DNA of 64,000 nucleotides from an uncultured Candidatus Micrarchaeota archaeon (lineage in GTDB: Archaea > Micrarchaeota > Micrarchaeia > Anstonellales > Bilamarchaeaceae). The notes under the pieces were generated by a model. The model was given only the letters and a program-made list of their open reading frames with translations, made no database searches and was not told where the DNA came from. The position numbers and the translations under genes were made by a program. The DNA lies in assembly GCA_963714085.1 (NCBI GenBank), contig OY970229.1:704001-768000 (forward strand), read 5' to 3'. How positions within the stretch are numbered: the first letter of the stretch is position 1; each line of letters begins with the position of its first letter. Shown one piece after another: positions 1-25,940 of the stretch.

Positions 1-813
1 ATCCCTCAGCACATTGAGGTATTTTGTGAGCTCCGTGGGTTTCCTTCCGCTATAATCCGCTATCTCCTTGAGCGAGTCTTTGCCCGCAGCCACGGCGGTC
101 AGGATCGTGAAGTACATCTTGTGCTCGGTCCCGAACTCCTCCCTCAGCATGGCGCGTATCTCTTCGTTCAGAGGCCGCGGGTAGAGCATGAAGAGGCTTT
201 TGACCGCGTCCATGAACGAAGGGTTCCCCATGCGCTCGAGCGTCTCGTAGTATTTCGGTATGCCGCCGAAGACCAGGTAGAACCGCATGGCGTCTTCGAA
301 TGAATATCCGGATGCGCTGCAAAGCACGAAGACCGCGCGGAAATCCAGCTCTCTCAGCCTGATGATGAAATCGAACCTGCCGTAAAGCGGGCTTTTGTAG
401 TCCTCTATAAGGCTTTTCATCACCGAAAGATAAGATCCCGATACCACGATGCCGCAGTCCTTGTGCTTGTCGAGGAGCCTCTGGAGGTCGTATATGAAGG
501 AACGGTTCACTTTGGCCACGTTCTGCAGCTCGTCTATGAAGACAAGCCTGCCCTTCTCCTTCAGGAACAGGTATTCGAAGAATTCCCTGAAATTCGAGAG
601 CCTGGGAAGGCCGAGGTCAGGGTATTCGTCGACCCAATCGGAGATGATCTCGTTCTCGGTCTTCTCCGCGGGGATGAAAAGCGTCAGGATGTTCTTGTAA
701 CTGTGCTCCACAAGCGTGGTCTTCCCGACCCTCCGCCTGCCTACGACTGCGACTCTCGGCCGTTTCAGGCCCTTCAATAGCTCCAATTCCTTTTCCCTGT
801 CGACGAACAGCAT
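1..813 (-). CDS. Archaeal ATPase (ATPase_2/DUF234-type P-loop NTPase), partial, runs off the left edge
   Basis: Not in the ORF track. Manual translation from ATG at 813 gives MLFVDREKELELLKGLKRPRVAVVGRRRVGKTTLVE (FVDRE.EL start, Walker A GRRRVGKT), later VFIDELQN (Walker B) and VSGSYLS. Confidence 0.9.
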   Translation of the reverse strand, partial: MLFVDREKELELLKGLKRPRVAVVGRRRVGKTTLVEHSYKNILTLFIPAEKTENEIISDWVDEYPDLGLPRLSNFREFFEYLFLKEKGRLVFIDELQNVAKVNRSFIYDLQRLLDKHKDCGIVVSGSYLSVMKSLIEDYKSPLYGRFDFIIRLRELDFRAVFVLCSASGYSFEDAMRFYLVFGGIPKYYETLERMGNPSFMDAVKSLFMLYPRPLNEEIRAMLREEFGTEHKMYFTILTAVAAGKDSLKEIADYSGRKPTELTKYLNVLRD

Positions 814-861: not shown

Positions 862-1992
862 TCATTTTGCTGTTCTCTCGAGCATTTTCCGGGCGCCTTC
901 GAAGACCTCGTCCACGCTTATGAGGCGCATGCATTCGCCGTCGCACTTGCGCATTTCGTTGAGATGTATGTTTATCACCGGGTGCCCTGGGCTTGGATGG
1001 TAGAAGGCGAGGTTCCGCCCGAGCGGGAACGGGCCGAAGCGCTGCGGGAGGTTGGGGCCGAACAGGCCGATCGTGGGCACGCCCTGGGCCGCGGCCACAT
1101 GCATGGGCCCGGTGTCGTTGGCGATCATGAGGTCGTATTTTGCCACCAGGCAGAAAAGCTCGGTCTGGCTGAGATTCAACATGCAGAACACGTCCCCCTT
1201 GTCCTTGAGCATGCCTATTATCCCCAGGTTGCCAGGCTCTTCGGACGAAGAGCCGGTGAGGATGAATGTGCAGCCGTATCTCTCTTTTATCCGGCCTATC
1301 AGCTGGGCGAACCTCTCCTTCGGCCATGCCCTCCAGGTCGCGCTCGGGCCTGTGAAGGCGTGCATGCCTATCAGGGGATGCTTGTCCGGATTTATGCCCA
1401 TGGCCTTGAGCTTCGCGTCCAGCGACCTTGCCGCGTCTTGGCTATACCTCAGCCTGACCAGCTCTTTGGGCCTTGCGTTTATCCCGAGCGGCTTGAGCAG
1501 GTCGCATATGGTGCATACTGCGTGCTGGGCGTCGTTGTAAGCAACGTTCACGTCGTATAGTTTCGCCCTCGGGCCGTGGTCGTAGCCTATGGAGCGCTTC
1601 GCGCAGAAGAATGAGAGGATCGCCGAGATCGCGAAATGCGGCTCGGTGTCTATGGCCAGGTCGAATCTCCTGAAATTCTTTAGGATGAAGAACGGGATGG
1701 ACGACGAGCTGGTTTCCTTGTATGCGTCTATGAAATCCTGGCCCCTGAAGACGTCGGAGTTCTTCTTCGTGCAGAGCACGGTTATCCTGGAATCCGGATT
1801 CGCCTGCTTCAACGCTTTGATCATGGGCAGGCAGAGGATGGACTCGCCCAGCGCCCAGAGCCGGATGACGACCATCTCTTTGTTTTTTTCCAGAAGCGGC
1901 TTTTTCCTCTTGAATATGGAGAGCAGGCTGCACATGGATGGCAGGACCTTCTTCTCGACGAACCTCTCTATCTCGAACAGCAACAGTTTCAC
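862..1992 (-). CDS. Glycosyltransferase family 9 (WaaC/WaaF-like heptosyltransferase)
   Basis: IRLWALGESIL N-terminal motif, ANDTGPMHVAAA.GVPTIGLFGP motif; last gene of the heptose operon. Confidence 0.88.
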   Translation of the reverse strand: MKLLLFEIERFVEKKVLPSMCSLLSIFKRKKPLLEKNKEMVVIRLWALGESILCLPMIKALKQANPDSRITVLCTKKNSDVFRGQDFIDAYKETSSSSIPFFILKNFRRFDLAIDTEPHFAISAILSFFCAKRSIGYDHGPRAKLYDVNVAYNDAQHAVCTICDLLKPLGINARPKELVRLRYSQDAARSLDAKLKAMGINPDKHPLIGMHAFTGPSATWRAWPKERFAQLIGRIKERYGCTFILTGSSSEEPGNLGIIGMLKDKGDVFCMLNLSQTELFCLVAKYDLMIANDTGPMHVAAAQGVPTIGLFGPNLPQRFGPFPLGRNLAFYHPSPGHPVINIHLNEMRKCDGECMRLISVDEVFEGARKMLERTAK

Positions 1993-2519
1993 CCTTTTGA
2001 GAGTATGATGTCCGCCGCGCTCCTTATATCAGGAGCAGTGGCGTCCGCGGCGTTCTTCCCTTCTCCGATATAGACCGTCCGGCAGCCGGCGGACTTGCCT
2101 GCCTGCACGTCGGAATCCTTGTCCCCCACCATCCATGAGCCGGACAGCGTTATATCGTGCTCCTCCGCCGCCCTTATGAGCATGCCTGGCTTGGGCTTGC
2201 GGCAGTCGCAGTCCACCAGGTACTTTTCCACCTTCGCCTCGGTCGGATGATGCGGGCAGTAGTATACCGCGTCGACCTTCGCGCCCCTCTTTTTCAGCTC
2301 CGCGACCAGGTGGTCGTTGAAAGCGCGCACGTCCTTCTCCGTGAAATAGCCGCGCGCCACGCCGGACTGGTTGGAGACGATGATCACAAGGTAGCCCGCC
2401 TTGTTCAGCCTGGCCAAGGCCTCTGGCACGCCGTCGAGTATGCTCATGTCGCTGGTCTTGAACTGGTAGTGCTTGTCTTCTACGACGACCCCGTCCCGGT
2501 CGAGAAAAACTGCTTTCAT
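1989..2519 (-). CDS. gmhB: D-glycero-D-manno-heptose 1,7-bisphosphate phosphatase (HAD IIIA)
   Basis: FLDRDGV, SNQSGVARG, CPHHP...CDCRKPKPG, MVGDKDSD. Confidence 0.93.
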   Translation of the reverse strand: MKAVFLDRDGVVVEDKHYQFKTSDMSILDGVPEALARLNKAGYLVIIVSNQSGVARGYFTEKDVRAFNDHLVAELKKRGAKVDAVYYCPHHPTEAKVEKYLVDCDCRKPKPGMLIRAAEEHDITLSGSWMVGDKDSDVQAGKSAGCRTVYIGEGKNAADATAPDIRSAADIILSKG

Positions 2520-2529
2520 CCCTGATCAA

Positions 2530-3084
2530 CTACTTGGACAATTCGTCTTCAATCAGTTCGCACATCATGTGTATCGCCATGCCGTGCATCTCCTGTATCC
2601 TTGGGGTGTTGTCAGAGGGCACGACCAGCGCCTTGTCGCACAGCGGAAGCAGCTTCCCTCCCCCTTTCCCGAGCAGACCTGCGGTCCTCATCCCTTTCTC
2701 TTTCGCCTTCTTCGCAGCTTCCAGGAGATTGGGGGAGTTCCCGCTCGTGCTTATCAGGAAGAGCATGTCGCCTTTGTTACCCAGCGCCTCCACCTGGCGC
2801 GAGAAGACCTTGTCATAGCCGTAATCGTTTGATATCGCGGTGATGGCAGAGGTGTCGGTGCTCAGCGCGATAGACGGAAGACCTTTCCGCTCCTTCTTGT
2901 ACCTGCCGACGAGCTCGGCCGAGAAGTGCTGCGCGTCCGCCGCGCTCCCACCGTTCCCGCATACGAGTATCTTGTTGCCGCTCCTCAGGGTGGCTATCGC
3001 CGCCTCCGCTGCGTCCTTGACCTGCTTCAATGGCAGTTTCCTGCAGACGGAGATGTGCTCCTCCAGATCGGTTTCAAGCGCCAT
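2530..3084 (-). CDS. gmhA: Phosphoheptose (sedoheptulose-7-phosphate) isomerase
   Basis: [41 protein letters not shown]. Confidence 0.96.
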
Positions 3085-3088
3085 AGGA

Positions 3089-4519
3089 TCACCCGATGAG
3101 GTCCCTCGATGAGACCTTCTTCCCGCCCTCGTTGACCAGGTCGATGAGCTCCACCCTGCCCCCGTAGTTCTCCACGATCCTAGCCTCTGGGAGGTTCCCG
3201 ACGGTGTAATCCTTGCCCTTGACGTAGATGTCGGGCTTTAGCATCTCGACGAGGTATTCAGGCGTGTCGGTATCGAACACAACGACGTAGTCCACGAAGG
3301 GGAATGCTGCCAGCATCTCGGCCCTCCCGTGCTGGGGTATCTTGGGCCTGCCAGGCCCCTTGAGCTTCTTCACCGAAGCGTCGCTGTTGAGCGCGACTAT
3401 CAATATGTCGCCGAGCTCCCTGGCTTTCCTGAGGAAATACAGGTGGCCGTGGTGCAGGACGTCGAAGCACCCGTTCGTGAAAACTACCTTCTTCCCGGTC
3501 GCCCTCTGCCTGCCTATGGCTTTCGCGAGGCTATCCTCGTCGAGGATCTTCCTCTCCTCCATTGAGAGCTTCTTCCTTATCTCGTCGAGCGATACCGGGA
3601 CCGCGCCCCGTTTCGTGACTTTCACGGCCGCTGCAATGTTGGAGATGCGGAGGGCGCCCTGGACCGGCACCTTGCATGCCAATGCCACGGCGAACGCCGC
3701 CGTCACTGTGTCCCCAGCGCCGATTATGTCGATGACCTCCTTGCTCTCGACCAGCGAGTGGGACGTTACGTCCCCGATGTAGCTCATGCCCTTCTCCGAC
3801 CTGGTGACGAGAACGTCGGCCTTCAGGTCCTCCCTGACCTTTTTTCCTGCGCGCTCTATGTCGGCGTCGCTGTTCTCTACTTTCTCTCCGTACGCCTTCG
3901 AGAGCTCCCTGAACTCCTTGAAGTTCATCTTTATGATGTCCACCTTGCCCCTGAAGAGCTTCGCGTTGCCCGGCTTCACGTCCGCCATCCTCTTCTTCGC
4001 CTTTATCCTGAGGAAATCGGGCACCGTGTCCGGATTGAAGATGCCTTTGTTGTAATCGGAAAAGACCACCAGGTCGAAATCATCTTTCAGCCTCTTGACC
4101 AGGAAGCCGGATGTCGTTTTCGTGATGGGTGTACGGTCCTCGATGTCCTCCCTGCCCAGCAGGGCATTCGTCTCGGCATCGAAGAACCTTCTTTTGAGCG
4201 TAGTCGGGCGGCCGTCCCTCTCCACGACGGTCGGTATCTTGTTTTCCACTGCCAGGCGGTCAAGCTCTCCGTCGAATGCAATCCCTGCCAGCACTACTTC
4301 CGCTCCCAGCGCTTTTATGTTGTGGGCGAGATTTCCTGCGCCGCCCAGCTTTTTCTCGATGCGCTGCAGGTCCCATACGAGGAACGGACCCTCGGGTGTC
4401 TTGCGCTCGAGGCGGCAGTAATGGTACTCGTCTATCATCACGTCCCCGAGAACCAGGATCTTCAGCTTCCCGCCGTTCTGCTCTATGGCATCTATCTCGC
4501 AGTCCACTCTGAACACCAC
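3089..4519 (-). CDS. hldE: Bifunctional heptose-7-phosphate kinase / heptose-1-phosphate nucleotidyltransferase
   Basis: PfkB kinase domain ([27 protein letters not shown]) fused to a cytidylyltransferase-like domain ([25 protein letters not shown]); start codon uncertain. Confidence 0.92.
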
Positions 4520-4562
4520 ATGGTTATTTCGCCGGAGGTTTATATAAACTTGAGTTTGGCGC

Positions 4563-5666
4563 CTATCTGGCCAGGCCGAGGGCGGTTTCCACGCTCTCGC
4601 GCGTGATTATCCTGTTTATGAGCACGGAATCGTTCTTCGGGTTCGAGAAGTATTCATCGTCCGAAGGATGGAGCAGGACCGCAGTTCGCCCCTCGCCTTG
4701 TATGCGGGATATGTTCTTCGATATCTCGGTCCTCTTGCCGGTTATCTGGGGTGGCCAGAGGGCATGGACGCCCATCTGCCTCGCGGAGCCTCCGTAGACG
4801 ACTATGGAACGGGCGCAGAACATGGATGCGAGGTGGGATATCCCGTGGTCCACACCGAGATAGAGCGAAGCCGAGCATGCGAGCCTGCCCGCCTCCTCCA
4901 GCGATGGGGAGAGGAGGCTGCACCGCATCCCGTGGCTCGTACACGAAGCTGAGAAATGCTCCGCATGCTCCTTCTCCCACTGGCTCTTCGCATCCAGCAG
5001 CGTGATTACCCGGTAATCCGGGAACTGCTTGCTCAAGCATTCCGCTATGATGTCCAGCTTCGCATTCTCGATCTTCTTGTAATCCAAATCCCTGAACAGG
5101 TGCACGAGGATGGTCTTGCCGCTCTTCCCCTTGCCGGCCTTGAGGGAGGAGCGCATCCTTTCACGGACTTCCCTGGCCTGGTCCGGATATGAGCCTTTTT
5201 CCTTGATCGCATCGCAGAACAGCCCGAAGACCGAGGCGCCCACAGCCTCGCCCTGGTTGGGGACCATGTGCCTGGAGCGTATCCCGGAGAGACGCAGGAG
5301 CGGCCTGGCCCCCCAATTGTACAAGAGGATCTCGTTTTTCCTCCTGGCGTGGAAGGGTTGTGGCAGGACCATTCCGAGCCTGTCCTTGCCCATTTTCATG
5401 ATGGTCCCCAATGAGCGCCTGTCCCCAACGACCGCGATATCGTACCTGGTCTTTTCTGCGAGCACCTGCTTCGGTGGGATGAGCCTCAGGTCGCCCTTCT
5501 TCATCTCCCGGGCGAATATCAGCTGCGCCACCTTCTGCGGGCTTCCGCTCGTGAAGACTATGTCGACCTTATAGCCCTGCTTCATGGCGAGGAGGAACAG
5601 CGGGGCGAAGCACATCACGTCCCCGAGCCCCAGGTTGTGGACCATGAAGGCCATTGCCTTTTGCAT
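4563..5666 (-). CDS. Divergent GT9-like glycosyltransferase
   Basis: HNLGLGDVM (GLGD) and GVDHGISHLA (D.G..H) GT9 motifs; start taken at MQKAMAF just after the hldD stop. Confidence 0.6.
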   Translation of the reverse strand: MQKAMAFMVHNLGLGDVMCFAPLFLLAMKQGYKVDIVFTSGSPQKVAQLIFAREMKKGDLRLIPPKQVLAEKTRYDIAVVGDRRSLGTIMKMGKDRLGMVLPQPFHARRKNEILLYNWGARPLLRLSGIRSRHMVPNQGEAVGASVFGLFCDAIKEKGSYPDQAREVRERMRSSLKAGKGKSGKTILVHLFRDLDYKKIENAKLDIIAECLSKQFPDYRVITLLDAKSQWEKEHAEHFSASCTSHGMRCSLLSPSLEEAGRLACSASLYLGVDHGISHLASMFCARSIVVYGGSARQMGVHALWPPQITGKRTEISKNISRIQGEGRTAVLLHPSDDEYFSNPKNDSVLINRIITRESVETALGLAR

Positions 5667-5668
5667 TG

Positions 5669-6589
5669 TCATTCCCCGTTCGCCTTCAGGAAAGCGACGT
5701 AATCCTTTACCGCTTTTTCCAGATCCCACTCGGGCTTGTAGCCCAGACCCTGGCCGCTGCGCTCCAGGGACGCTTCCGTATGGTCCTGGTATTTGTCTGT
5801 GAAGGGATTGTCGAAGTACTCGATCTCGCGCTTGACCCCCAGCGCGCCTGTGAGCGCGTTGCAGACGTCGTTGAACGAGCGCGCCTTGCCTGAGCCGACG
5901 TTGTAGATCCCGCTCTTGCCATTCTCCAGCGCGAGCAGGTTCGCCTTCACCACGTCCTTGACGTATACGAAATCCCGCTTCTGCTCTCCGAACTTGAAGA
6001 TGCGGGGGTTCTTGCCGGCTTTCACCTGCAACGCCAGCTGGTATATCATGGATGCCATCCTGCCCTTGTTCTGCTCCCTTGGCCCGAAGACATTGAAGTA
6101 TCTAAGGCCTATGACGCGGGCTTTCGGGTGCTTTTTGATGAAGCGCATGGCCACGCAGTCGCACATCCACTTGGAGAAGCCGTAGACATTGAGCGGGACG
6201 CCGGCGTCGCCTTCTTGCTGGGGCGACTTGGCCGCTCCGTAGACCGCCGCGGAAGAGGCGTAGACGAGCGGCGTGCCCTTCTCGCCGCTGTACCTGAGCA
6301 GCGGCTCCATGGGATCGAGGTTGGACTGCAGCATGAGCTTCTCGTCATACACCGTGGTGTCGGTTATGGCCGCCTCGTGGAATATCGCGTCCGGCGCGAT
6401 CTCGAGCAGCCTCTGGTGGGAAAGCCTGGAGAGGTCGTCCGCGATGACGGTCCCGGTGAAGCCCCTGAGGTTCGCGAACGTGCCCACCGACATGTTATCG
6501 AAGATTGTGACGTCGTGCCCCAGCCGTTCCAGCTCGAGCGCGAGGTTGGAACCGATGAAACCCGCGCCGCCTGTGACAAGCAGTTTCAT
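5669..6589 (-). CDS. hldD: ADP-L-glycero-D-manno-heptose 6-epimerase
   Basis: VTGGAGFIGSNL, YASSAAVYG, PLNVYGFSK, LRYFNVFGPREQNKGRMAS, YQDHTEA; start at MKLLVTGG. Confidence 0.9.
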   Translation of the reverse strand: MKLLVTGGAGFIGSNLALELERLGHDVTIFDNMSVGTFANLRGFTGTVIADDLSRLSHQRLLEIAPDAIFHEAAITDTTVYDEKLMLQSNLDPMEPLLRYSGEKGTPLVYASSAAVYGAAKSPQQEGDAGVPLNVYGFSKWMCDCVAMRFIKKHPKARVIGLRYFNVFGPREQNKGRMASMIYQLALQVKAGKNPRIFKFGEQKRDFVYVKDVVKANLLALENGKSGIYNVGSGKARSFNDVCNALTGALGVKREIEYFDNPFTDKYQDHTEASLERSGQGLGYKPEWDLEKAVKDYVAFLKANGE

Positions 6590-6629
6590 GGGAATAACCT
6601 TCGTAAAACCAATTTTAAAGGTGATGGGG

Positions 6630-7670
6630 CTATCGGCTCCGCAGGGCGTCCTCATAAGCCGATATCGTGCTATCGATGCATGCGTCCCAGGTGAACTGCT
6701 TGAGATATTCGAGATGCGCTTTGGAGAAGACGAAGCCTTCGGATCGCACCTTCTCTAGCAGCGCTGCGAGATGCTCCTCGTCCTTCGCTTTCAGGCAGTA
6801 TGTGGTCACCTCTCCTGGCACGTGCGCCCCTTCCTTGACTATCGTGGGCACATGGCACATCTGGGCCTCGATCATCGGGAGGCCGAAACCCTCGCTGGTG
6901 GATGGGAACACGAAGACGTCGAAGCTGTTGTAGATGTCCACGATGTCCTTCTCATCAGCGAAACCGCGGAATTCCACGTTTTTCACTCCCAGTTGTTTTG
7001 CCAGCTCGATGCACTTCCCGTAATCCACGCCCTTGCCGTAGAGGACCAGGCGGCATGGTGCCGCGCACCGCTTTTCGAATATCGAGTAGGCGCGTATGAG
7101 AAACGACACGTTCTTGCCGACATTGAATCCTCCAAGATACCCAATCGTGAATATACCGCTTTTTTTCTCCTTCGACGCCTTGAATTTCTCATCAGCCGCC
7201 AGTGGTATGACGCGTATCTTCTTCTCGTCCACATTGAAATGTTCGAGGATATCGGTTTTCGTCTGGGAGGAGATGGCGAGCAGCATATCAGAGTGCTTGA
7301 TTGCGGCTGCGAACGCTTTTCCGAGCAGCATGTACCTGCTTTCGTTCCGGACATTGTAGAGGTTGAGGTCGTAGATGGTCGTTACCACTTTTTTCCCGTA
7401 TAGTTTTTTCAGGACGGGTATCGCCATGCCAGCCTGCGGAGCTGCGAAATGGAATAGGTCTCCTGTCCCGAACGGATACAACGACCTGAGCGGGAGATAC
7501 AGCAGAAAATCGAACGCTGATTTGAAAGGGCCTGGAAGGGCTGGCGGGGAGCTGACCGAATTGACGGTTATCCCTTTTTTCCGCAGGCCCTGGATCAGCT
7601 TCAGGCAATACCGGTCTATCCCGTGGCCTGTGGACTCGTCCAGGTAATGGGCCACCAGGGTGACTTTCAC
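6630..7670 (-). CDS. Glycosyltransferase family 4
   Basis: GHGIDRY, TIYDL, FVFPSTSEGFGLPMIEA. Confidence 0.9.
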   Translation of the reverse strand: MKVTLVAHYLDESTGHGIDRYCLKLIQGLRKKGITVNSVSSPPALPGPFKSAFDFLLYLPLRSLYPFGTGDLFHFAAPQAGMAIPVLKKLYGKKVVTTIYDLNLYNVRNESRYMLLGKAFAAAIKHSDMLLAISSQTKTDILEHFNVDEKKIRVIPLAADEKFKASKEKKSGIFTIGYLGGFNVGKNVSFLIRAYSIFEKRCAAPCRLVLYGKGVDYGKCIELAKQLGVKNVEFRGFADEKDIVDIYNSFDVFVFPSTSEGFGLPMIEAQMCHVPTIVKEGAHVPGEVTTYCLKAKDEEHLAALLEKVRSEGFVFSKAHLEYLKQFTWDACIDSTISAYEDALRSR

Positions 7671-7738
7671 TGCCCCACCGGCCGGATGAACCGTCTCTCC
7701 CTGGAGGACGGCGTCGTTATCAGAAAGTAGATGCCCAT
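7667..7738 (-). CDS. Possible 23-aa small ORF (MGIYFLITTPSSRERRFIRPVGQ) coupled to the GT4 gene
   Basis: ATG at 7738 preceded by AAAGTGATCCG (SD-like GTGA); its TGA overlaps the GT4 GTG start (GTGA overlap). Confidence 0.35.
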   Translation of the reverse strand: MGIYFLITTPSSRERRFIRPVGQ

Positions 7739-7829
7739 CGGATCACTTTGAAAGGGGGTTTGCTGCGCGCATATTTTAAACTCTTACGGGCATAGTGATG
7801 CCATCTTTTTCAGGCGGAGAGAGGATTGT

Positions 7830-8984
7830 ATGGAACAGAAAGAAGCGGAGTTGCTGCCTTTCGAGCAGGTCTTCGAGCCGGGCAGATTCAAGGAGCTGAA
7901 GCGCTCGGGGCATGTTATAGACATCGATAAGATAGACGAGCACGTGAAGGCACATGGCGGCAGGAAAACGGCCATGCCTGATCAGATATACTGGAAGGGG
8001 AAGAGGGTGCTCATAACCGGCGCAGCTGGGATGGTGGGAAGCACCATAATGGACTCGCTAGTCGAACTCGGAGCGGACGTCTATGGGACCGTGAAGAGGC
8101 ACGCAGCCCCGGATTACCCGAACATAAAGCACCAGATAGAAGATGGGAAGGTCAAGGCCGTGGAGGTCGACCTGCGCGATTACGGAAGGGTTACCGAGCT
8201 CATAAAGCAGATAGAACCGCAGGTTATCTTCCACCAGGCATCGGAATCGTTCGTGCCCACCAGCCTGAAACAGCCGAGCCACGTGGTGGAGAACAACTGC
8301 GTGAGCACCGTCAACCTGCTCGAGGCTGCTACGAAAGACGGCAAGGGGCTCGAGGGGATACAGCTGGCGTGCTCTTCAGAGGAGTACGGCTTCGTGAAGA
8401 GCTTCGATGAGCTGCCTGTGAAGGAAACCAACCCGCTCAGGCCGACATCCACATACGCCGCGACCAAGGTGTTCACTGAGTATATAGGCCTGGCCTACTA
8501 TTTCATGTACAAGACCCCGGTCCTGATATCGAGGACGTTCAACCAGGAAGGCCCCAGGCGCGGGCCGCAGTTCTTCACAGCACGCATAGCGACACAGATG
8601 GCCGACTGCCTAAGCGGCAAGTCGGACAGGATAGTCATGGGAAACCCGAATTCCGTCCGTGATTTCACGCATGTGCACGACACCGCCAGGGCGCAGATAC
8701 TCGCGGTGGAGAAATGCAACCGCGGGGAGGCCTACAACATCTGCTCCGGCAAGGGGATAACCACCGGAGACTATGTGAAGCTGGCGCTGAGGCTGTATTC
8801 GCTCGAAGGCAAGGTCAAGGTGTTCGTGGACAAGGCCTTCCTGCGCTCCTACGAGAGGGGGGAGTCCCTCATGGACGGCTTCATAGGCAACAACTCCAAG
8901 TTCATGGAGAAGACCGGCTGGGCGCCGACGACCACCGTGGTGGACATAATAAAGGACGGCGTCAGCTACCAGAGGAAGGGATGA
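7830..8984 (+). CDS. GDP-mannose 4,6-dehydratase-like SDR with N-terminal extension
   Basis: LITGAAGMVGS, FHQASESFV, SSEEYG, YAATK, FNQEGPRRG, GNPNSVRDF. Confidence 0.8.
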   Translation: MEQKEAELLPFEQVFEPGRFKELKRSGHVIDIDKIDEHVKAHGGRKTAMPDQIYWKGKRVLITGAAGMVGSTIMDSLVELGADVYGTVKRHAAPDYPNIKHQIEDGKVKAVEVDLRDYGRVTELIKQIEPQVIFHQASESFVPTSLKQPSHVVENNCVSTVNLLEAATKDGKGLEGIQLACSSEEYGFVKSFDELPVKETNPLRPTSTYAATKVFTEYIGLAYYFMYKTPVLISRTFNQEGPRRGPQFFTARIATQMADCLSGKSDRIVMGNPNSVRDFTHVHDTARAQILAVEKCNRGEAYNICSGKGITTGDYVKLALRLYSLEGKVKVFVDKAFLRSYERGESLMDGFIGNNSKFMEKTGWAPTTTVVDIIKDGVSYQRKG

Positions 8985-9026
8985 ACGGTCCGATGTTTGT
9001 CTAGCATCAACGAGAATGTCGCGAGT

Positions 9027-9971
9027 TCACTTCCTGAATACGACTTCGACATATTCTCCAAGTCCGACCAGATTTATTATCTCCACCGGAATAAATAATG
9101 GGATTGTAAGCAATTTGCGGATAATTGGCGGATATTCGATGGGTTTCCCTAGCTTCTCCTCGATGAAGTACCGTACGCTGTTCTTGTACGACTCTGGAAT
9201 ATCGTTGAAATTCACCTTCTCGACTTTCAAGCCGTTTTTTCTCCCGTATTCGATGAGGTTCGGGATGGAGAAAAGGTAGATGTGGCGGGGTGTATCCAGG
9301 TCCTGCCAGTACCTCCCGAAGAGACGGAAACCCAGGGAACCCGTATTAGGCACCGCGATTATCACGAACCCTCCGGGCTTGACGATTCTTTTCACATCAG
9401 CGAGCATGGCTGCTGGGTCTGGCGCATGCTCGAGCACATGGTTCAAGGTGACGACGTCGAAAAACTCATCTCCGAATCCGGCATCCTCTAAGAGTCCTTT
9501 GCGTATGGTGAACCCCTCCTTCTGGCTCAGGGTGGGATTGAAATCGGAAGGTTCCACTCCGTACACTTCGAATCCGAGCTTCTTGGCGATTGAGAGGAAT
9601 GCGCCGTTGCCGCAGCCGACATCAAGAAGGCGCATCTTGCCTTTGCGTGGAGGCAGGGTCCGGTTGAACCAGATACGAAAGAATGGCAGCGACAATGCAG
9701 CGAAAATCTTGTCCTTGAGCCCTTGCCCCTGGCGTATCCTGGCTAGTTCAAGAGCACGCTTCTCGTACATGCCACTGGACAGCGAGTAGTATGTGTTAGG
9801 ATAAAAGCCTTCGATTTCCTGCTGGGTCGGGATGGGATCCTGGCGTATGATGCCGCACGATGCGCACCGGACAAGCTGGTACTCCTTCCCCTTTCTGAAC
9901 ATTCTGTCATGGTTGACGAAGAGGGGACTGGAATTTTTACTCCCGCAGAGATTGCATGCATCGGTTAACAT
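9027..9971 (-). CDS. Class I SAM-dependent methyltransferase with N-terminal CxxC pairs
   Basis: CNLC...CASC; LLDVGCGNG; HVLEHAPDP; PRHIYLFS. Confidence 0.85.
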   Translation of the reverse strand: MLTDACNLCGSKNSSPLFVNHDRMFRKGKEYQLVRCASCGIIRQDPIPTQQEIEGFYPNTYYSLSSGMYEKRALELARIRQGQGLKDKIFAALSLPFFRIWFNRTLPPRKGKMRLLDVGCGNGAFLSIAKKLGFEVYGVEPSDFNPTLSQKEGFTIRKGLLEDAGFGDEFFDVVTLNHVLEHAPDPAAMLADVKRIVKPGGFVIIAVPNTGSLGFRLFGRYWQDLDTPRHIYLFSIPNLIEYGRKNGLKVEKVNFNDIPESYKNSVRYFIEEKLGKPIEYPPIIRKLLTIPLFIPVEIINLVGLGEYVEVVFRK

Positions 9972-10206
9972 CGTATCCCTTTCTTTCGGCTCTGGCGAGC
10001 GGCTCGATAAACGCGACTTTGGCAGAATGAATTTTTATGAGGTTGTATGGGACGCTAATGATTATATTTATACGCGTCGATAAGTTGAACAGGTGCGTTT
10101 CAGGCCAATGGCGTCCTGGCAGAGATATTTATGGTAGATGGACGCATAGGCGATTTCAAGGGCAGGCCGCCGGGTACGAAGCTTCAACTGCGGAAGGGGT
10201 GGATTC

Positions 10207-11253
10207 ATGAGGATATTTGTCGCTGGAAATCTGGGGTATATCGGAACGACCATGACGAAAATGATGCATGATGCGGGCCATGAGGTTGTAGGCTGCGACT
10301 GCGCCTATTTCAACGATGGCTTCATTCAAGGAGATCTGAAGGGCTTCATGAAAGAGTATGTGAAGAAGCAGATAACCAAGGACGTCCGGGACATAAATGG
10401 ATCAGACATCGCAGGCTGCGACGCGGTCGTGGACTATTCCGGGCTCGCGAACGACCCTGCCTCGGACCTCAATCCGCTCTGGACCGACCAGATAAACCAC
10501 CTTTCCCCCGTCCATCTCGCCAATCTGGCGAAAAAAAGCGGCATACGCCGTTTCGTATTCGCCTCGTCCTGTTCGACATATGGGGCGCAGTCCGGAGACA
10601 GCATGGTGGAGGAGACCTCGCCGCTACTTCCCGTATCGGCATACGCGAAAGCGAAGATAGGGGTCGAGCAGGATGTCGGCAGGCTGAAAGACCGGAGCTT
10701 CCACCCTACATTCATGAGGAACGCGACTGTCTTCGGTTTGTCATACCGGATGAGATTCGACCTCGTAGTCAACAACCTGACCGGATGGGCATACACCACG
10801 GGAAAAGTCAAACTCCTGAGCGCGGGAACATCATGGCGACCCAGCCTCCACGTCGAAGACTGCTGCAAGGCAGTGATGGCAGTGCTTGAGAGCCCGGAAG
10901 ACGGCGTGAGCGGCGAGGCGTTCAACATCGGCATGGATTCCGAGAATTTCAAGATAGTTGAAATCGCCGGCATGGTGAGGGAGATTGTGCCCAACTGCGA
11001 ACTCGAGGTCGGCAAGGACGCCCCGGTCGATCCGAGGTCCTACAGGGTTTCATTCAAGAAGATACATGAACGCATCAAATTGTTCAAGCCGTCATGGACG
11101 GTGCGGATGGGCATAAGGCAGCTTTATGAGCATTTCAGGAAGATAAACCTGGAGTATGAGACATTCTCGGCCAAGAGATTCTACGACGTGGATACTATGA
11201 AACGACTGATAGCCGAGAACAGGGTGGATGGAGATTTGAGGCTCAAGAACTAG
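10207..11253 (+). CDS. NAD-dependent epimerase/dehydratase (extended SDR)
   Basis: AGNLGYIG, GLANDP, FASSCSTYG, YAKAK, RNATVFG..RMRFDLVVN. Confidence 0.85.
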   Translation: MRIFVAGNLGYIGTTMTKMMHDAGHEVVGCDCAYFNDGFIQGDLKGFMKEYVKKQITKDVRDINGSDIAGCDAVVDYSGLANDPASDLNPLWTDQINHLSPVHLANLAKKSGIRRFVFASSCSTYGAQSGDSMVEETSPLLPVSAYAKAKIGVEQDVGRLKDRSFHPTFMRNATVFGLSYRMRFDLVVNNLTGWAYTTGKVKLLSAGTSWRPSLHVEDCCKAVMAVLESPEDGVSGEAFNIGMDSENFKIVEIAGMVREIVPNCELEVGKDAPVDPRSYRVSFKKIHERIKLFKPSWTVRMGIRQLYEHFRKINLEYETFSAKRFYDVDTMKRLIAENRVDGDLRLKN

Positions 11254-11269
11254 GATCAAAGGCGAAAAA

Positions 11270-12175
11270 ATGGAAGAACTACTTCTCCTCATTCTTTTCC
11301 TGATCTCCGGCTACCTGCTCCCGAAGTTCAGGCTCGCCAAAGGCACGGATTACAAGTTGCTAACGAATTTCGTCTTCTACGTCTGCCTGCCCTGTTCCAT
11401 ACTCTCGTCTTTTGCGGGGGTGGTGATAACCGGTTCGTTATATCTCGCCATCGGCATCCTTTTCGCGACGTTCATAATATTCACGGTATCGACGCTCGCG
11501 GTGGCGTCGTTCTTGAAGCTCGACAAGCGCATGTTCTACGCAATCCTGATCTGCGGCTTTTTCGGGAATATAATCTACTTCGGTTTTCCGTTCGTCCAGA
11601 TGCTCATGGGGAATGGCGCGCTCCCGCTAGCGGGCATCTACGTAGCGGCGTATAATCTCTTCATATTCGCGCTCCTGCTCCCATTCATATCCACGCAAGC
11701 CGGGGGAAAGCAGACCGGAAAGGACGGCATCGTGAAAGCGCTCAGGAATCCGTGCGTGATTTTCACGTTCATCGGCATCGTCGTCCTTGCCCTTTCGCTA
11801 GACATTGGAGCTGTAGTGCCGTACCTGCAGGGTTTCGCATCGCTCACGACGCCGATCTCGCTCGTCGCCATGGGGCTGTTCCTTTCGGACAAACTCCGCG
11901 TGAAACTTGACGGGAACCTGGTTTCTATCATGGCTGCGAAAATTGTGTTCTTCCCGCTGATAACGGCCATCCTGCTCGTGATAAGCGGGCTCTGGGGCTC
12001 AGCACCGGGGAGAGAGATGCTGTTGTTGTCCTTCATGCCCGTCGCGATAACCAGTTTCGTGATCGCCGATTCACTAAATCTGGACCTGGACGAACTGGTG
12101 ATGGACGCAATCGTAGCGACGAGTGTGGTATCCACACTTGTCGTGTTCGGGCTTAAGCTCTTAGGAGTGTTCTGA
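11270..12175 (+). CDS. AEC (auxin efflux carrier) family transporter
   Basis: About 10 hydrophobic segments; NFVFYVCLP, FGNIIYFGFP, NP..I, PISLVAMG, MPVA motifs. Confidence 0.8.
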   Translation: MEELLLLILFLISGYLLPKFRLAKGTDYKLLTNFVFYVCLPCSILSSFAGVVITGSLYLAIGILFATFIIFTVSTLAVASFLKLDKRMFYAILICGFFGNIIYFGFPFVQMLMGNGALPLAGIYVAAYNLFIFALLLPFISTQAGGKQTGKDGIVKALRNPCVIFTFIGIVVLALSLDIGAVVPYLQGFASLTTPISLVAMGLFLSDKLRVKLDGNLVSIMAAKIVFFPLITAILLVISGLWGSAPGREMLLLSFMPVAITSFVIADSLNLDLDELVMDAIVATSVVSTLVVFGLKLLGVF

Positions 12176-12256
12176 CGGATCAGTCCTCCTTAAGTCGCTC
12201 TGTTTCTTTAGTGATTTTCTTCTGGGCAGGAAAGAGGGTGATGACCAGTATGTCTT

Positions 12257-13228
12257 CTACTTTGGGATGGTCGGACCTGTCATGGAAGGGATAATATGGC
12301 GTCTGTATGAAAGCAAGCCTTTCATGATTGCTGCGCTCATGAGCAGGATCCGATAAGGCAGCCTGACGAGGTCGGCGGGGGAGAGTAAGAAGGCCACATT
12401 GCTTTTGCTGAGGTCGCTCCGCTTATCCGCCCTCCGGACGATGAGCCGGGCGTAAATCCGCGCCATCATCTTCAAGAGCTCCGGCAAAGGCGCATAGCGT
12501 GCGTAGAATATTATGATGTTCCTCGCGATTACGTAGTCTCGTTCGTCGCTGGCGGTTATCGAACCGCCTTCCAGATGGTAAAGAGATACGTTGCCTGCGT
12601 AGATTATCTTGAAACCGGATTTCCTGGCTCTGAAGCAGAGGTCTACATCCTCGCAGTAGTATGGGGAGAAGATTTCATCGAAGCCGCCGATTTTCCCAAG
12701 AACTTCTGTCCTGATGAGACATGCCGCCATGGTGACCGCGTCAAGTTCCTCGATGTCTCCCAAACTCGATGCCGAGCCGCCTCTTCCCCGGTGCCGGTCC
12801 GGCCAGAATGATATCCCCCCATGCTGGATCGTGCCGTTCGGATAGAGCAACTTGCAGCCTAGGATGCCTGCCGAGGGGTTTTTCCCCGCGACTGACACCA
12901 GCGAAGAGAGCCAATCCGAAGCTATGATGGTTATGTCGTCATTCAGGAATGCGATGTAATCGCAGGGGAACTCCCGCATCGCGAGGCTGAATGCCTGGTT
13001 CGCCGCCTTGGTCAGGCCGATGTTCTTCGCTACGCCGAAAAGCGTGACCTCGGGGTATTCCTTTTGTATTATATCCTTCGAATGGTCGGTGGAGCCGTTA
13101 TCGAAAACGAATGTCCTCTGATTCGGGTAGTCGGTTTTCCTGAGCGAATCTAGGCAACCGCGTATGAGGCCCTCTCCATTGTAATGTACTATGACTATGG
13201 CGACGGGAGGTTGGTCCCTAGGGCTCAT
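12257..13228 (-). CDS. Glycosyltransferase family 2
   Basis: VIVHYNG, DNGSTD, FLNDD, GGFDE.F.PYYCEDVDLCFR; ATG at 13228 overlaps the upstream TGA (ATGA). Confidence 0.88.
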   Translation of the reverse strand: MSPRDQPPVAIVIVHYNGEGLIRGCLDSLRKTDYPNQRTFVFDNGSTDHSKDIIQKEYPEVTLFGVAKNIGLTKAANQAFSLAMREFPCDYIAFLNDDITIIASDWLSSLVSVAGKNPSAGILGCKLLYPNGTIQHGGISFWPDRHRGRGGSASSLGDIEELDAVTMAACLIRTEVLGKIGGFDEIFSPYYCEDVDLCFRARKSGFKIIYAGNVSLYHLEGGSITASDERDYVIARNIIIFYARYAPLPELLKMMARIYARLIVRRADKRSDLSKSNVAFLLSPADLVRLPYRILLMSAAIMKGLLSYRRHIIPSMTGPTIPK

Positions 13229-14469
13229 CCGACCACGTCTGTCAAAGAAGCGATGATGCGCGGGGATGGGACCGGTATTATGAATTTTCCTCCCGATTCG
13301 AGGAATTTCTCTTGCTGCTTGATTATCTCGGGAGCGAAGTTCCAAGCCAGTATGAGGACTACGTCCGGTTTGCTTGAGTAGAGCGCCTCCGGGGCGAGTA
13401 TAGGTATGTGCGTGCCAGGAGTGTAAAGGCCTTGCTTGTACTCGCTCTTGTCCACGGTGAAGTCTATCAGCCGCGTGTCTATTCCGCAGAAACAAAGCAG
13501 CGTGTTCCCTTTGGCTGGTGCGCCGTAGGCAGCGAGCTTCCTGCCCTGCTTCTTGAGATCCTTCAGCATGGACACGAGGTTTTCATTGAGCCGCTCGACC
13601 TTGTCTGCGAAGCCCTTGTAGGTCTCAAAGTTCCCGAGCCCCAGCTTTTTTTCGAGCTCCTGCTGTCGCTGCACAGCTGGCAGGACGGGTCGCGGGCCTC
13701 CTTTGCGCTGCACGAAGATGCGTATCGAACCGCCATGGATATCGGTCCTCTTGACGTTGAAGATCTCCATGTCGTGCATGGCGAACAACCGGACCAGGGG
13801 CCCAAGCGAGAAGTAGGAGAGGTGCTCGTGATAAATCGTATCGAATTCCACCTTGTCCAGCAGCTCCGCGAGGTAAGGGAACTCGAGGACCAGGAAACCG
13901 TCTTGCGCGAGAAGCGTATTCACGCCTTCGATGAGGTCGTGGACGTCATTGACGTGAGCGAACACGTTATTGCCTACTATCGCGGTGGCCTTGCCGTATT
14001 TCGCCTCAATGGATTTGGCAGAACGGGAATTGAAGAAATCGTTGAGCGTCGGAAGGCCTTCCTTGTTTGCCTTCTCGGCTATGTTGGCGGCTGGGTCCAC
14101 GCCCAGGAACCGGATACCATGCCTGGTCAGGTTTTTTATGAATATGCCGTCGTTGCTGGCTATCTCGACAACGAATGCATTGGATTTGTCAGAGTGCATC
14201 GCGGCCACTTCGTCAGCATAATCCGAGAAGTGCTTCATGAGCGTGGGCGAGGTCGATGAAAAATACAGGTAGTTGCTGTACAGCTTCTCTGGAGAAACTA
14301 CTTCGCCAAGCTGGACGAGGCCGCAATCCTCGCAGAAGTAGACATCCAGCCGTTCTTTGTACTCCGGCTTGCCCAGGTCCTCCTTGGTGAGATAGCTGTT
14401 GGCGAGCGCGACAACTCCCAGATCCAGGAACCTCTTGAGCCGGCTACCCTTGCAGATGCGACAGTGCAA
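13225..14469 (-). CDS. NDP-sugar C-methyltransferase (Zn-binding; TylCIII/TcaB9-like family)
   Basis: CRIC...CEDCGLVQL, EIASNDG, NVFAH, FDTIYHEHLSYFS, HGGSIR, YGAPAKGNT, LAWNF. Confidence 0.88.
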   Translation of the reverse strand: MHCRICKGSRLKRFLDLGVVALANSYLTKEDLGKPEYKERLDVYFCEDCGLVQLGEVVSPEKLYSNYLYFSSTSPTLMKHFSDYADEVAAMHSDKSNAFVVEIASNDGIFIKNLTRHGIRFLGVDPAANIAEKANKEGLPTLNDFFNSRSAKSIEAKYGKATAIVGNNVFAHVNDVHDLIEGVNTLLAQDGFLVLEFPYLAELLDKVEFDTIYHEHLSYFSLGPLVRLFAMHDMEIFNVKRTDIHGGSIRIFVQRKGGPRPVLPAVQRQQELEKKLGLGNFETYKGFADKVERLNENLVSMLKDLKKQGRKLAAYGAPAKGNTLLCFCGIDTRLIDFTVDKSEYKQGLYTPGTHIPILAPEALYSSKPDVVLILAWNFAPEIIKQQEKFLESGGKFIIPVPSPRIIASLTDVVG

Positions 14470-14582
14470 TAAATCACCATCCTACGAACAGATACCAGAT
14501 TACGAATATTTTTATGATGCTTGGAAGCAGTATTAAACAATCACAATTAAAAAGAATGAAGAGCGGTTCGCGGTGATTATCC

Positions 14583-15476
14583 TTGGATGCGCTGGTGCTA
14601 GGCGGGAGCGGCCTTGTCGGAGAAAGAATCGTGATGGCGCTGCAGCGCGCAGGCTTCCGGATGGCATATACCTACTTGGGCAATGCGCTGGATATCCAGG
14701 GAGCGGAAGGCATAAGGATGGACATATCCGATTCCGAAGCGCTCACGAGCCTGCTTGAAACCAAAAAGACTAGGTTCGTAATAAACACGGTGGCACTCCC
14801 TTCGGTGGACAAATGCGACGATGACGAGGAACTCGCCTTCAAGGTAAATGCCGAACCCCAGAAGCTGCTGGCTGACTTTTCCAACAGGACTGGCGCCGGC
14901 ATAGCGTTTATATCCACCTCCAACGTGTTCGGACCTTCGGATAGGTCCTTCAGTGAGGATGACCGGCCAGGCCCGATAAACACGTACGGCAGGACGAAAC
15001 TCCGCGGTGAGGAGTATACTCTGCGCGCGAAGCGGCATATCATACTGAGAACCGACCAGGTATATGCTTGGACCAGAGAAGGACAGAAAAAGACGTTCGT
15101 GGAGAAGACGCTCGGGAAGCTTGAGAACGGGGAGACTGTGGAGGTATGCAGGGATTGGTTCAACTGCCCTACCTACGCTGACGACCTGGCTGTCGCCCTG
15201 GTGAAACTCTTCGCGGGCAGCCATTGGGGGGTTTTCCATGCGGTTGGGCCCACGTATATCAACAGGTACGAATGGGCTGTCCGCATCGCAGATGCATTCA
15301 CGCTCGACAGATCTTTGGTGAGGACTATAGATTCCTCGGTCCTCGGCCTCCCGGCTCGCCGCTCGAACTGCTCCCTGAGCAATAAGAAAATTGAGCGAGT
15401 CAGCGGAGTGCGGTTCCTTTCCGTGGATGAGGGGCTGGAGAGGATGATGACTACTCGAAGTAGTCGGCATCCTTGA
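14583..15476 (+). CDS. RmlD-like NDP-4-keto-6-deoxyhexose reductase
   Basis: LGGSGLVG, VDKCD, ISTSNVF, P.NTYGRTKL.GE, PTYADDLA, ARR. Confidence 0.82.
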   Translation: MDALVLGGSGLVGERIVMALQRAGFRMAYTYLGNALDIQGAEGIRMDISDSEALTSLLETKKTRFVINTVALPSVDKCDDDEELAFKVNAEPQKLLADFSNRTGAGIAFISTSNVFGPSDRSFSEDDRPGPINTYGRTKLRGEEYTLRAKRHIILRTDQVYAWTREGQKKTFVEKTLGKLENGETVEVCRDWFNCPTYADDLAVALVKLFAGSHWGVFHAVGPTYINRYEWAVRIADAFTLDRSLVRTIDSSVLGLPARRSNCSLSNKKIERVSGVRFLSVDEGLERMMTTRSSRHP

Positions 15477-16008
15477 AAAGCGGCCACTTCTTGTCCTTCT
15501 CGGATAGTGTCGGGTTTGTCACGTTCCAGTTTATTCCGAGTTGCGGATCGTTCCACAGGACGCCGCGCTCGTTATCCGGGGAATATCCGTTGTCGACCCT
15601 GTAGAGCAACGCGGCGTCTTCTGTGAGACTCACAAACCCATGCGCGAAGCCGCGGGGCACGAAAAGGCTCAGCATGTTCCTGGCTGAAAGCACGATGCCA
15701 GTCCACTTGCCGAAAGTCGGCGAGCCTTTCCGCAGGTCGAGGATTACGTCGTATATCTCTCCGTTCAAGCACCGCACCAGCTTCCCTTGCGCGTATTTGC
15801 CGGATTGGTAGTGCAGGCCGCGTAGCACGCCCTTTTTCGAAACTGTCAGGTATTCTTCTGGGAAATACGGCTCCATGCCGAACTCCTTGAGCACGGCTTC
15901 GGTATAAAGCTTGTAGAACGTGCCCCGCTCATCACGGAACTCCTGGGGTTTTAGGACGAATGCATCTTTGAGCGGCAGATTCTCGCCTTCGAGTTTTCGG
16001 ACAATCAT
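15451..16008 (-). CDS. rfbC: dTDP-4-dehydrorhamnose 3,5-epimerase family
   Basis: DERG.F, GVLRGLHYQ, QGKLVRC, DLRKGSPTFG, PRGFAHGF, WNDP, LSEKD. Confidence 0.9.
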   Translation of the reverse strand: MIVRKLEGENLPLKDAFVLKPQEFRDERGTFYKLYTEAVLKEFGMEPYFPEEYLTVSKKGVLRGLHYQSGKYAQGKLVRCLNGEIYDVILDLRKGSPTFGKWTGIVLSARNMLSLFVPRGFAHGFVSLTEDAALLYRVDNGYSPDNERGVLWNDPQLGINWNVTNPTLSEKDKKWPLFKDADYFE

Positions 16009-16077
16009 GCGAACGCCTTCGACTTAGTTCGTTTATAGTTCTTTTGCCTTCGAAGAATTACGCCTGCACAGATGAGG

Positions 16078-16845: not shown

Positions 16846-16919
16846 GAGGGTGCTTTGGTAGGCAACTGATTAAAATATTCCGAATGCACGGACACCGGCC
16901 CGCTCCCTCCAGAAATCAG

Positions 16920-18308: not shown

Positions 18309-18366
18309 GCGTTATCTTAGCGGGTATTTGTTCTATAAATTTATCGCAATGGGTTCCTGAAGACGT

Positions 18367-19401: not shown

Positions 19402-19472
19402 AAATCACACCTGGAGGAATCTGACTCAAATGATTTTAAAAGCAAATTGAACGAATAAAACCTGTTGAGAGC

Positions 19473-20204: not shown

Positions 20205-20233
20205 TCATAGAGGCTGGCGGGGCCGTTCGACGG

Positions 20234-21451: not shown

Positions 21452-21460
21452 GGTGTATGC

Positions 21461-22450: not shown

Positions 22451-22501
22451 CGTTTTCCGTAACGCGGTGATTGCCTGGAAGAGAGCGAGACGATAAAGAG
22501 G

Positions 22502-24969: not shown

Positions 24970-24970
24970 A

Positions 24971-25879: not shown

Positions 25880-25940
25880 GAGAAGAAGTTGGTGCGTTCT
25901 CTTAATAAAACATTTTGACCATCTGTTTTGTGGGAAGAAG

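Follow-up and report, generated by a model that had tools for sequence, protein, structure and literature searches.

A predicted ADP-heptose operon with two GT9 glycosyltransferases in a probable Micrarchaeota genome and its possible role in N-glycosylation

Six adjacent genes on the minus strand of an archaeal contig (positions 6589 to 862 of the window, i.e., the whole 64,000-nucleotide (nt) stretch of contig OY970229.1 that was analyzed) include four that are predicted from their sequences to make ADP-L-glycero-D-manno-heptose and two that encode glycosyltransferases of the GT9 family, designated here GT9-A and GT9-B. The host is a DPANN archaeon, probably belonging to Micrarchaeota. We propose, with a probability of roughly 0.6, that this operon makes ADP-L,D-heptose and that the GT9 proteins add heptose to a dolichyl phosphate (Dol-P)-linked oligosaccharide used by AglB, an acceptor suggested by genomic context. 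The closest relatives of one of these enzymes are usually found beside aglB, and the heptose is therefore likely to be carried on surface glycoproteins.

The six-gene operon and its host genome

A first-pass annotation of this DNA had described a minus-strand run hldD-GT9-hldE-gmhA-gmhB-GT9, and all six open reading frames were found in the order claimed. The genes and two promoter elements are given below, with the evidence for each predicted function in parentheses.

6589-5669, minus strand: hldD, ADP-heptose 6-epimerase, 306 amino acids (TIGR02197, residues)
5666-4563, minus strand: GT9-B, divergent GT9 glycosyltransferase of a small unnamed family, 367 amino acids (PF01075, fold, motifs)
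4519-3089, minus strand: fused hldE, heptose-7-phosphate kinase and nucleotidyltransferase of a divergent lineage, 476 amino acids (PDB matches, conserved columns)
3084-2530, minus strand: gmhA, sedoheptulose-7-phosphate isomerase, 184 amino acids (TIGR00441, residues)
2519-1989, minus strand: gmhB, heptose-1,7-bisphosphate phosphatase, 176 amino acids (TIGR00213, residues)
1992-862, minus strand: GT9-A, member of an archaeal (DPANN) GT9 clade, 376 amino acids (PF01075, model, tree)
6613..6619, minus strand: archaeal TATA box, TTTAWAW, at -30 to the hldD start
4542..4548, minus strand: archaeal TATA box, TTTAWAW, at -29 to the hldE start

The intergenic gaps from hldD to GT9-A are, in order, 2, 43, 4, 10, and -4 nt. 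The short spacings or overlaps previously noted at most junctions thus hold for four of five, the exception being the 43 nt between GT9-B and hldE, and the TATA box ahead of hldE is likely an internal promoter. Across the genome, TTTAWAW is most frequent between -28 and -31, against a background of 0.46% for a window of 16 nt, and a scan for sigma-70 promoters and terminators revealed nothing beyond shuffled controls.

The window is part of a single contig of 1.57 Mb (87.65% complete). Archaeal markers include a proteasome alpha subunit (score above the cut-off), encoded some 9 kb ahead of the window, and an archaeal-type IF-2 within it. A full-length small-subunit ribosomal RNA matches RF01959, a model which also gives bacterial matches and is not decisive alone. 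The closest named relatives of GT9-A are labeled Micrarchaeota (two protein names and three record titles), and one more bears the name "ainarchaeum".

All six are genuine genes native to the host. Their GC content at third codon positions (GC3, 0.78–0.84) lies at the genome median (0.80), which agrees with the earlier remark that they share the GC-rich style of housekeeping genes. In sequencing run X1, which may be the source of the assembly, read depth was 2.7–8.4 across all 30 bins of 19.5 kb, and contigs of this run bridge the peptidase-flippase, flippase-SDR-ATPase, ATPase-GT9-A, and GT9-A-gmhB-gmhA junctions (SDR, short-chain dehydrogenase/reductase), none of them spanning the full stretch. 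Runs X2 and X3, from another study, contain identical short pieces of both housekeeping and heptose genes, with no piece covering the whole stretch. Orthologs of GT9-A with 54–63% identity occupy the same chromosomal site in genomes of the same family, next to lemA and to genes for a prepilin peptidase and a GT2. Among the loci compared, the nearest relatives of GmhA and GmhB come from same-family archaea.

It had been pointed out that coverage or assembly could expose these 6 kb as a bacterial chimera. The pathway is of bacterial type, and HldD is equally near to an Omnitrophota protein (49% identity) and to archaeal ones among the loci compared, both of which would fit a chimera or a recent nonfunctional insert. 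Such an origin has a negligible probability given the GC3 values, TATA boxes placed where this element peaks across the genome, the flat X1 depth with bridging contigs, and the syntenic orthologs, and contamination is ruled out on the same grounds.

Heptose-making enzymes and GT9 proteins

Comparison with curated models showed that GmhA (226.2 bits; TIGR00441 cut-off, 209.45), GmhB (162.1 bits; TIGR00213 cut-off, 149.6), and HldD (326.6 bits; TIGR02197 cut-off, 274.6) all pass. Identities of the heptose enzymes to those of Escherichia coli K-12 are 37–46%, with HldD at 46%. Subtype models placed GmhB at 177.1 against a cut-off of 178 for the beta type (PRK08942) and at 141 against 250 for the alpha type. 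The catalytic residues are kept, including H61, E65, Q172, and H180 of GmhA, D11, D13, and the zinc-site Cys/His of GmhB (which also keeps K111 and D136), and Y140, K144, and K178 of HldD (as Y136, K140, and K175). A source of sedoheptulose-7-phosphate is suggested by transketolase halves and a ribulose-phosphate epimerase-like gene at genome positions 873923-876410, whose identities were assigned by motif and not by family scan. Among the loci compared, HldD is closest to Woesearchaeota-labeled and Omnitrophota proteins.

The best PDB matches of the fused HldE are HldA (4e84) and HldC (5x9q). It keeps 34 of 42 conserved columns in the kinase and 35 of 37 in the transferase. Kept residues include D18, D22, R31, E35, N195, E198, and D264 of the kinase and the HxGH motif of the transferase, of which D264, N195, and HxGH are presumably catalytic. 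Lid changes (G27C, S33T, A36G, and V38F in E. coli numbering) account for four of the eight differing kinase columns, and the C-terminal motif reads SSR where STT is expected. The STTR5 motif (F/L)XXGRSTT of nucleoside triphosphate (NTP)-promiscuous HENases, as defined in PMC11573728, is absent from this HldE, and ATP is therefore taken as the default nucleotide. According to PMC11461863, STTR5 is not strictly required for NTP promiscuity.

HldE branches apart, in a group of three with the lone fused HldEs from two genomes (66% identity to G292 and 59% to G074; G and L numbers are our handles for genomes and loci) and does not group with the split kinases of GT9-A-bearing relatives, indicating that the operon is a mosaic. 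These lone genes (L033:8690-10111 in G292 and L034:8805-10397 in G074) are surrounded by housekeeping genes, and neither genome gave a GT9 match. G074 also has a GDP-alpha-type cassette (HddA-like kinase, GmhA, and an NTP-transferase-GmhB fusion) 6–8 kb from HldE. With G074 HddA as query, tblastn gave no match in our genome, where only a 47-bit GHMP match was seen elsewhere, and the GDP-D-glycero-alpha-D-manno-heptose pathway (HddA and HddC) was ruled out since the GHMP-type HddA kinase was not found.

Both transferases were assigned by PF01075, GT9-A with 89.7 bits and GT9-B with 24.4 bits, a narrow pass (cut-off, 22). The model of GT9-A has a predicted local distance difference test score (pLDDT) of 95 and template modeling (TM) scores of 0.64–0.76 to GT9 structures; that of GT9-B (pLDDT 82, residues 104–159 unreliable) has WaaC (2h1h) as its best fold match. 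Foldseek ranks 1–9 were all GT9 structures for both models. Based mainly on fold and motifs, GT9-B appears to be a very divergent GT9. Its family has 11 matches among 1.84 billion representatives, and an ortholog in G144 heads the same cassette. GT9 proteins are inverting enzymes which give alpha linkages.

Relative to WaaC-type enzymes, GT9-A has an extra N-terminal helix, and Glu50 stands at the position of the WaaC catalytic Asp13, invariant in 46 of 46 aligned relatives. Glu at the catalytic-base position was also observed in Poribacteria GT9s of another branch and is thus not unique to archaea. The WaaC donor-site residues K192 and D261 correspond to R221 and D293 in GT9-A, whereas GT9-B keeps Asp16, Asp273, His278, and a Lys matching K192. 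WaaC H266, another donor-site residue, corresponds to H298 in GT9-A and H278 in GT9-B. Mutagenesis reported in PMC5713226 indicates that D13, K192, and D261 of WaaC matter. The intact motifs claimed in the first-pass annotation are found in GmhA, GmhB, and HldD, but this description does not fit GT9-A with its Glu50 in place of Asp13, HldE with its 8 of 42 deviating kinase columns and missing STTR5, or the very divergent GT9-B.

Phylogenetic analysis of GT9 proteins (124 rows, LG+G4, unrooted, supported by the Shimodaira-Hasegawa-like approximate likelihood ratio test (SH-aLRT) only) left out 5 of 129 rows (2 partial and 3 judged outliers, including L142_6667) as well as a few GT9s from GC-rich loci, including two Peribacteria loci. 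The clade that holds GT9-A has 29 rows (SH-aLRT 99), 28 archaeal and one from Bacteroidales; GT9-A shows 33–41% identity to Woesearchaeota orthologs. Four rows carry Methanosarcinales labels, which are treated as doubtful because these rows cluster among Woesearchaeota and have the same gene order. As the tree is unrooted, no donor lineage is claimed.

To relate GT9-A to heptose synthesis, we analyzed 201 genomes sampled evenly from the order of G308 (Woesearchaeota-type). GT9-A was detected in 60 and heptose kinase in 70; the kinase is present in 52 of 60 GT9-A carriers versus 18 of 141 noncarriers, and within 10 kb of GT9-A in 35 of the 40 cases in which both share a contig. Among 301 genomes of the window's own phylum, a hand count found an HldE-like gene in 27, GT9 in 23, and both in 16, i.e., an HldE-like gene in 16/23 GT9 genomes versus 11/278 without GT9. 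Kin are not independent, and these counts are thus descriptive. Unpublished genomes G305 (L087), G311 (L093), and G448 are inside the counts or trees, and their publication needs the permission of the depositors.

This co-occurrence, together with the kept catalytic residues and the passing score of HldD, argues against a donor other than plain ADP-L,D-manno-heptose. Such a donor could arise if HldE and a second SDR made another nucleotide or isomer, or if a GT9 used a CDP- or GDP-sugar of the adjoining sugar island, and it would fit the HldE lid changes, SSR in place of STT, the Arg of the downstream SDR at the position of K144, and a glucose-1-phosphate cytidylyltransferase in the island. 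We consider it improbable, and it is partly compatible with our proposal, as only the isomer may differ. The best model for the downstream HldD-like SDR is TIGR02197, at 159 bits and so below its cut-off. Its gene (L159:10516-11424) is also conserved in two other genomes, G287 and G109; the protein retains Y140 and K178, has Arg for K144, and may make another heptose isomer.

The acceptor in genomic context

Genes for a lipopolysaccharide (LPS) acceptor were searched with five families (waaA, PF04413; kdsA, TIGR01362; kdsB, PF02348; lpxC, PF03331; lpxB, PF02684), and none matched this 87.65% complete genome although controls were positive; lpxA, lpxD, and lpxK were not searched. The earlier statement that no genes for 3-deoxy-D-manno-octulosonic acid (Kdo) or lipid A are in the window thus extends to the whole genome for these five, and a hidden LPS/Kdo acceptor was rejected on the basis of these families. 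Among 36 other GT9-bearing archaeal genomes, WaaA was found in none and KdsA scored over the cut-off in one (G258). Weak matches to the kdsA model in 17 of these 36 (86–142 bits versus a cut-off of 314) are probably 3-deoxy-D-arabino-heptulosonate 7-phosphate synthases. Both GT9 proteins score far under the WaaC/F/Q equivalog cut-offs (best 65/467, 59/185, and 57/135), with GT9-B giving no score. Since acceptor pathway and equivalog scores fail and GT9-A lacks Asp13, this is not an LPS core system, and the suggestion of an archaeal heptosylation with a non-LPS acceptor gains support from the missing LPS genes and the failure of the chimera explanation.

In G258, which belongs to the same family, a complete kdsB-kdsA-kdsD-kdsC set over the cut-offs lies inside a glycan cluster (L183:9136-12233); contamination is possible. 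G258 also has GT9-A and gmhA, and neither waaA nor a heptose kinase was found in it.

Analysis of gene neighborhoods in relatives pointed to AglB. In the Woesearchaeota-type sample, aglB was found in 57 of 60 GT9-A carriers and on the same contig in 32, in 28 of which it precedes GT9-A by no more than 8 kb in the same orientation. The genes most often run in the order geranylgeranyl reductase, aglB, an AglJ/PpgS-like GT2, DUF2304, GT9, and heptose genes. Among non-Micrarchaeota archaeal loci of the GT9-A clade, aglB is present in 16 of 21, and in 14 of the 15 with at least 4.6 kb upstream; nine loci of the clade hold aglB, GT9, and the kinase together. Three further GT9 branches in the window's class (G231, G093, and G142/G173) are also near aglB. 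In L108:3403-6816 and L097:3288-6671, AglB is fused to C-terminal peptidyl-prolyl isomerase domains of the FKBP or parvulin type.

The genome itself contains AglB, a flippase, a putative Dol-P priming GT2 (below the AglJ cut-off), and sequons. N-x-S/T sequons are enriched 2.2-fold over shuffles in 87 proteins predicted to be secreted by a simple hydropathy rule, versus 0.98-fold in 633 cytoplasmic proteins. The enrichment is 2.5-fold in the 74 secreted proteins shorter than 1000 amino acids; 64 of 66 proteins are above expectation. This enrichment implies that N-glycosylation is heavily used; under our proposal, heptose would be part of the glycan. A predicted secreted protein of 13,675 amino acids (genome 337404-378431, outside the window) has 808 N-x-S/T sequons, and at least nine other predicted secreted proteins exceed 1500 amino acids.

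Genes flanking the operon are as follows.

1..813, minus strand: archaeal ATPase (PF01637), co-oriented with the operon
genome 702515-703423, same strand, outside the window: HldD-like SDR
genome 700880-702505, same strand, outside the window: Wzx/MurJ-type flippase
genome 699975-700823, same strand, outside the window: A24 prepilin peptidase
genome 698774-699970, same strand, outside the window: GT2
6630..25978: adjoining sugar island

The flippase lies 2.4 kb downstream of the operon, three genes on, past the ATPase and the HldD-like SDR. The sugar island encodes GT4, NDP-sugar dehydratases/epimerases, methyltransferases, glucose-1-phosphate cytidylyltransferase, an AglJ/DPM-like GT2, PF03706 and DUF6541 membrane proteins, and a UDP-sugar dehydrogenase. 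Within it, genes for glucose-1-phosphate cytidylyltransferase, a 3,5-epimerase, a reductase, and a C-methyltransferase (window 10207-16845) lie beside the heptose operon and suggest a CDP-linked branched deoxysugar.

A pathway can be proposed from these observations. Transketolase would supply sedoheptulose-7-phosphate, on which GmhA, the HldE kinase, GmhB, the HldE nucleotidyltransferase, and HldD would act in that order, as known for these families. An AglJ/DPM-type GT2 would prime the Dol-P sugar, and GT9-A would act at the cytoplasmic membrane face on a short Dol-P sugar with Glu50 as base, after which GT9-B would add a second or branching heptose. The flippase and then AglB would place the glycan on asparagines of surface proteins.

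Several points weigh against this proposal. AglB of this genome (1053 amino acids, with WWDYG) is encoded 116 kb from the operon, and in same-family GT9-A genomes with an aglB match the gene is on another contig in 4 of 4; the aglB link is thus carried over from Woesearchaeota orthologs. Adjacency was unscorable in 28 of 60 carriers (aglB on another contig or no aglB match), DUF2304 was not found in this genome with one query, and the other multi-pass membrane proteins of the island could deliver a different lipid-linked glycan. HldE is the best-scoring family for the fused protein, yet it is under the cut-offs (314.5/521 for the whole protein, 204.5/345 for the kinase, and 177.2/181.5 for the nucleotidyltransferase), and its lineage stands alone, without GT9, in G292 and G074. 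A heptose kinase was not found in 2 of 7 same-family GT9-A genomes (G258, 88% complete, and G262, 85% complete), Glu replaces the catalytic Asp of WaaC, and the only known heptose of an archaeal N-glycan is a galacto, not a manno, isomer.

The distance between the operon and aglB in this genome and family would also suit a different fate, in which heptose is made and transferred to a glycolipid based on archaeol or caldarchaeol, to a lipoglycan, or to a glycan on a lipid carrier that a GT-C-type enzyme different from AglB would deliver. The flippase, membrane GT2, and DUF6541/PF03706 proteins nearby, the PMT-type GT-C genes flanking GT9 in L108, and the glycolipid acceptor of bacterial GT9s are consistent with it. 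However, 28 of the 32 genomes that could be scored have their ortholog in the block of aglB, GT2, DUF2304, and GT9. In addition, aglB is near three further archaeal GT9 branches, and sequons are enriched. We regard this alternative as less likely than the N-glycan, though one to be taken seriously. Of the three acceptors listed in the first-pass annotation (a dolichol-linked N-glycan, an S-layer glycan, and an archaeol glycolipid), comparative context favors the first.

Another possibility is direct heptosylation of proteins in the cytoplasm. The bacterial autotransporter heptosyltransferases TibC and Aah (PMC4358343), a group marked by an iron finger and a dodecameric assembly, are reportedly GT-B enzymes that use ADP-heptose outside LPS for direct protein O-heptosylation. 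TibC is among the fold matches of GT9-A (TM 0.55–0.58, ranks 20 and 30, the former at 0.55), and an A24 prepilin peptidase lies at most four genes from GT9-A in 7 of the 8 genomes from the family, among them the present one. On the other hand, the TibC match is much weaker than that of GT9 structures, which fill ranks 1–9 for both models, and the association with a flippase and aglB suggests a lipid carrier. We thus regard a TibC/Aah-like role as very improbable.

A bolder version of the N-glycan proposal is that GT9-A represents a DPANN-wide family of N-glycan heptosyltransferases that act with a glutamate base on a Dol-P sugar, that GT9-B founds a second, small family adding another heptose, and that the two HldD-like epimerases supply two isomers, giving an LPS-core-like di-heptose N-glycan on giant surface proteins. 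We offer it tentatively, as possible though rather doubtful. If true, this bolder version would explain the purpose of archaeal ADP-heptose in about 30% of the sampled Woesearchaeota-type genomes and in some Micrarchaeota.

Variant cassettes and comparison with known systems

Some relatives carry cassettes in which another gene takes the place of a heptose gene. A cupin of about 120 amino acids (PF07883) occupies the gmhA slot in L084:11362-11742, L086:12160-13416 (fused to HldD), L087:10380-10748, L090:9997-10353, and L093:9998-10366. None of these loci holds gmhA (the loci, not the whole genomes, were compared), and the cupin is a candidate nonorthologous sedoheptulose-7-phosphate isomerase. 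Similarly, a GSU2086-family protein (NF052581, 420 bits; deoxyhypusine-synthase-like) is found in the hldD slot in L089:2576-3526, L091:12369-13289, and L096:4327-5232, three heptose cassettes without hldD, and also occurs in L036, L039, L109, L114, and L136. It is a candidate alternative epimerase or modifier. We found no paper on either protein in these slots.

A conserved protein of about 400 amino acids that neither Pfam nor NCBIfam recognizes is encoded next to heptose cassettes (L037:175-1386, L038:5514-6755, and L166:5578-6723). It was seen in G032 and G012, genomes with no GT9 match, and may be an unrecognized transferase. In ten loci, GT9 and the heptose genes are separated by a divergently oriented gene for an NTP-transferase-like protein (L084:10327-11067 and orthologs). 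The short N-terminal extension of this protein may be a ribbon-helix-helix domain.

Compared with the bacterial ADP-heptose/GT9 LPS system, the operon has the same four enzyme families with catalytic residues kept and two GT9-fold transferases with donor-site residues. It differs in that no Kdo or lipid A genes were found and both GT9 proteins are under the WaaC/F/Q cut-offs. Further differences are the Glu in place of Asp13 and the additional N-terminal helix of GT9-A, the archaeal promoters, and the linkage, which is with a flippase in this genome and with aglB in its relatives.

Functional NDP-heptose enzymes have been described in archaea, with Methanococcus maripaludis S2 named (Tang et al. 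2024, as given in the commentaries PMC11461863 and PMC11573728), and the purpose of archaeal manno-heptose is called elusive in the latter. The passages available in these commentaries name no transferase or acceptor for those enzymes, and the HldE described here lacks STTR5. Complete ADP-heptose clusters, lying as here inside archaeal glycan clusters, are given in the available texts for Iplasma, where S-layer glycosylation was proposed (PMC3750248), and for M. maripaludis KA1 and JJ (PMC12667266); these lineages differ from our host. The term "heptosyl" is absent from the main texts of both papers as available, GT9 is absent from the Methanococcus text, and no heptosyltransferase appears in the Iplasma supplements searched (11 of 14 files). 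Likewise, "hept" is absent from the main texts of the DPANN genomics papers PMC8204110, PMC12892359, and PMC8421398. No paper tying GT9 to AglB or archaeal N-glycosylation was found in a search that left subscription papers and most supplements outside.

A candidate transferase and a candidate acceptor emerge from this locus and its relatives, so that the question of why archaea make manno-heptose becomes assayable. If the proposal is true, GT9 would gain a role in N-glycan assembly, for which we found none in print, and this bears on how DPANN cells build the surfaces that face hosts and viruses. These implications are tempered by the fact that the pathway and the S-layer idea are published and that the best evidence from gene context is found in relatives instead of at this locus.

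The N-glycan of Thermoplasma acidophilum, which bears D-glycero-D-galacto-heptose (PMC12448462 and PMC11407970, in the passages available), is a precedent for heptose on an AglB-type archaeal glycan; its heptose is the galacto isomer, and neither a pathway nor a transferase is named in those passages. Earlier publications thus cover ADP-heptose clusters in archaea, their suggested use for the S-layer, and one archaeal N-glycan with heptose; for the link between GT9 and AglB, we found no paper.

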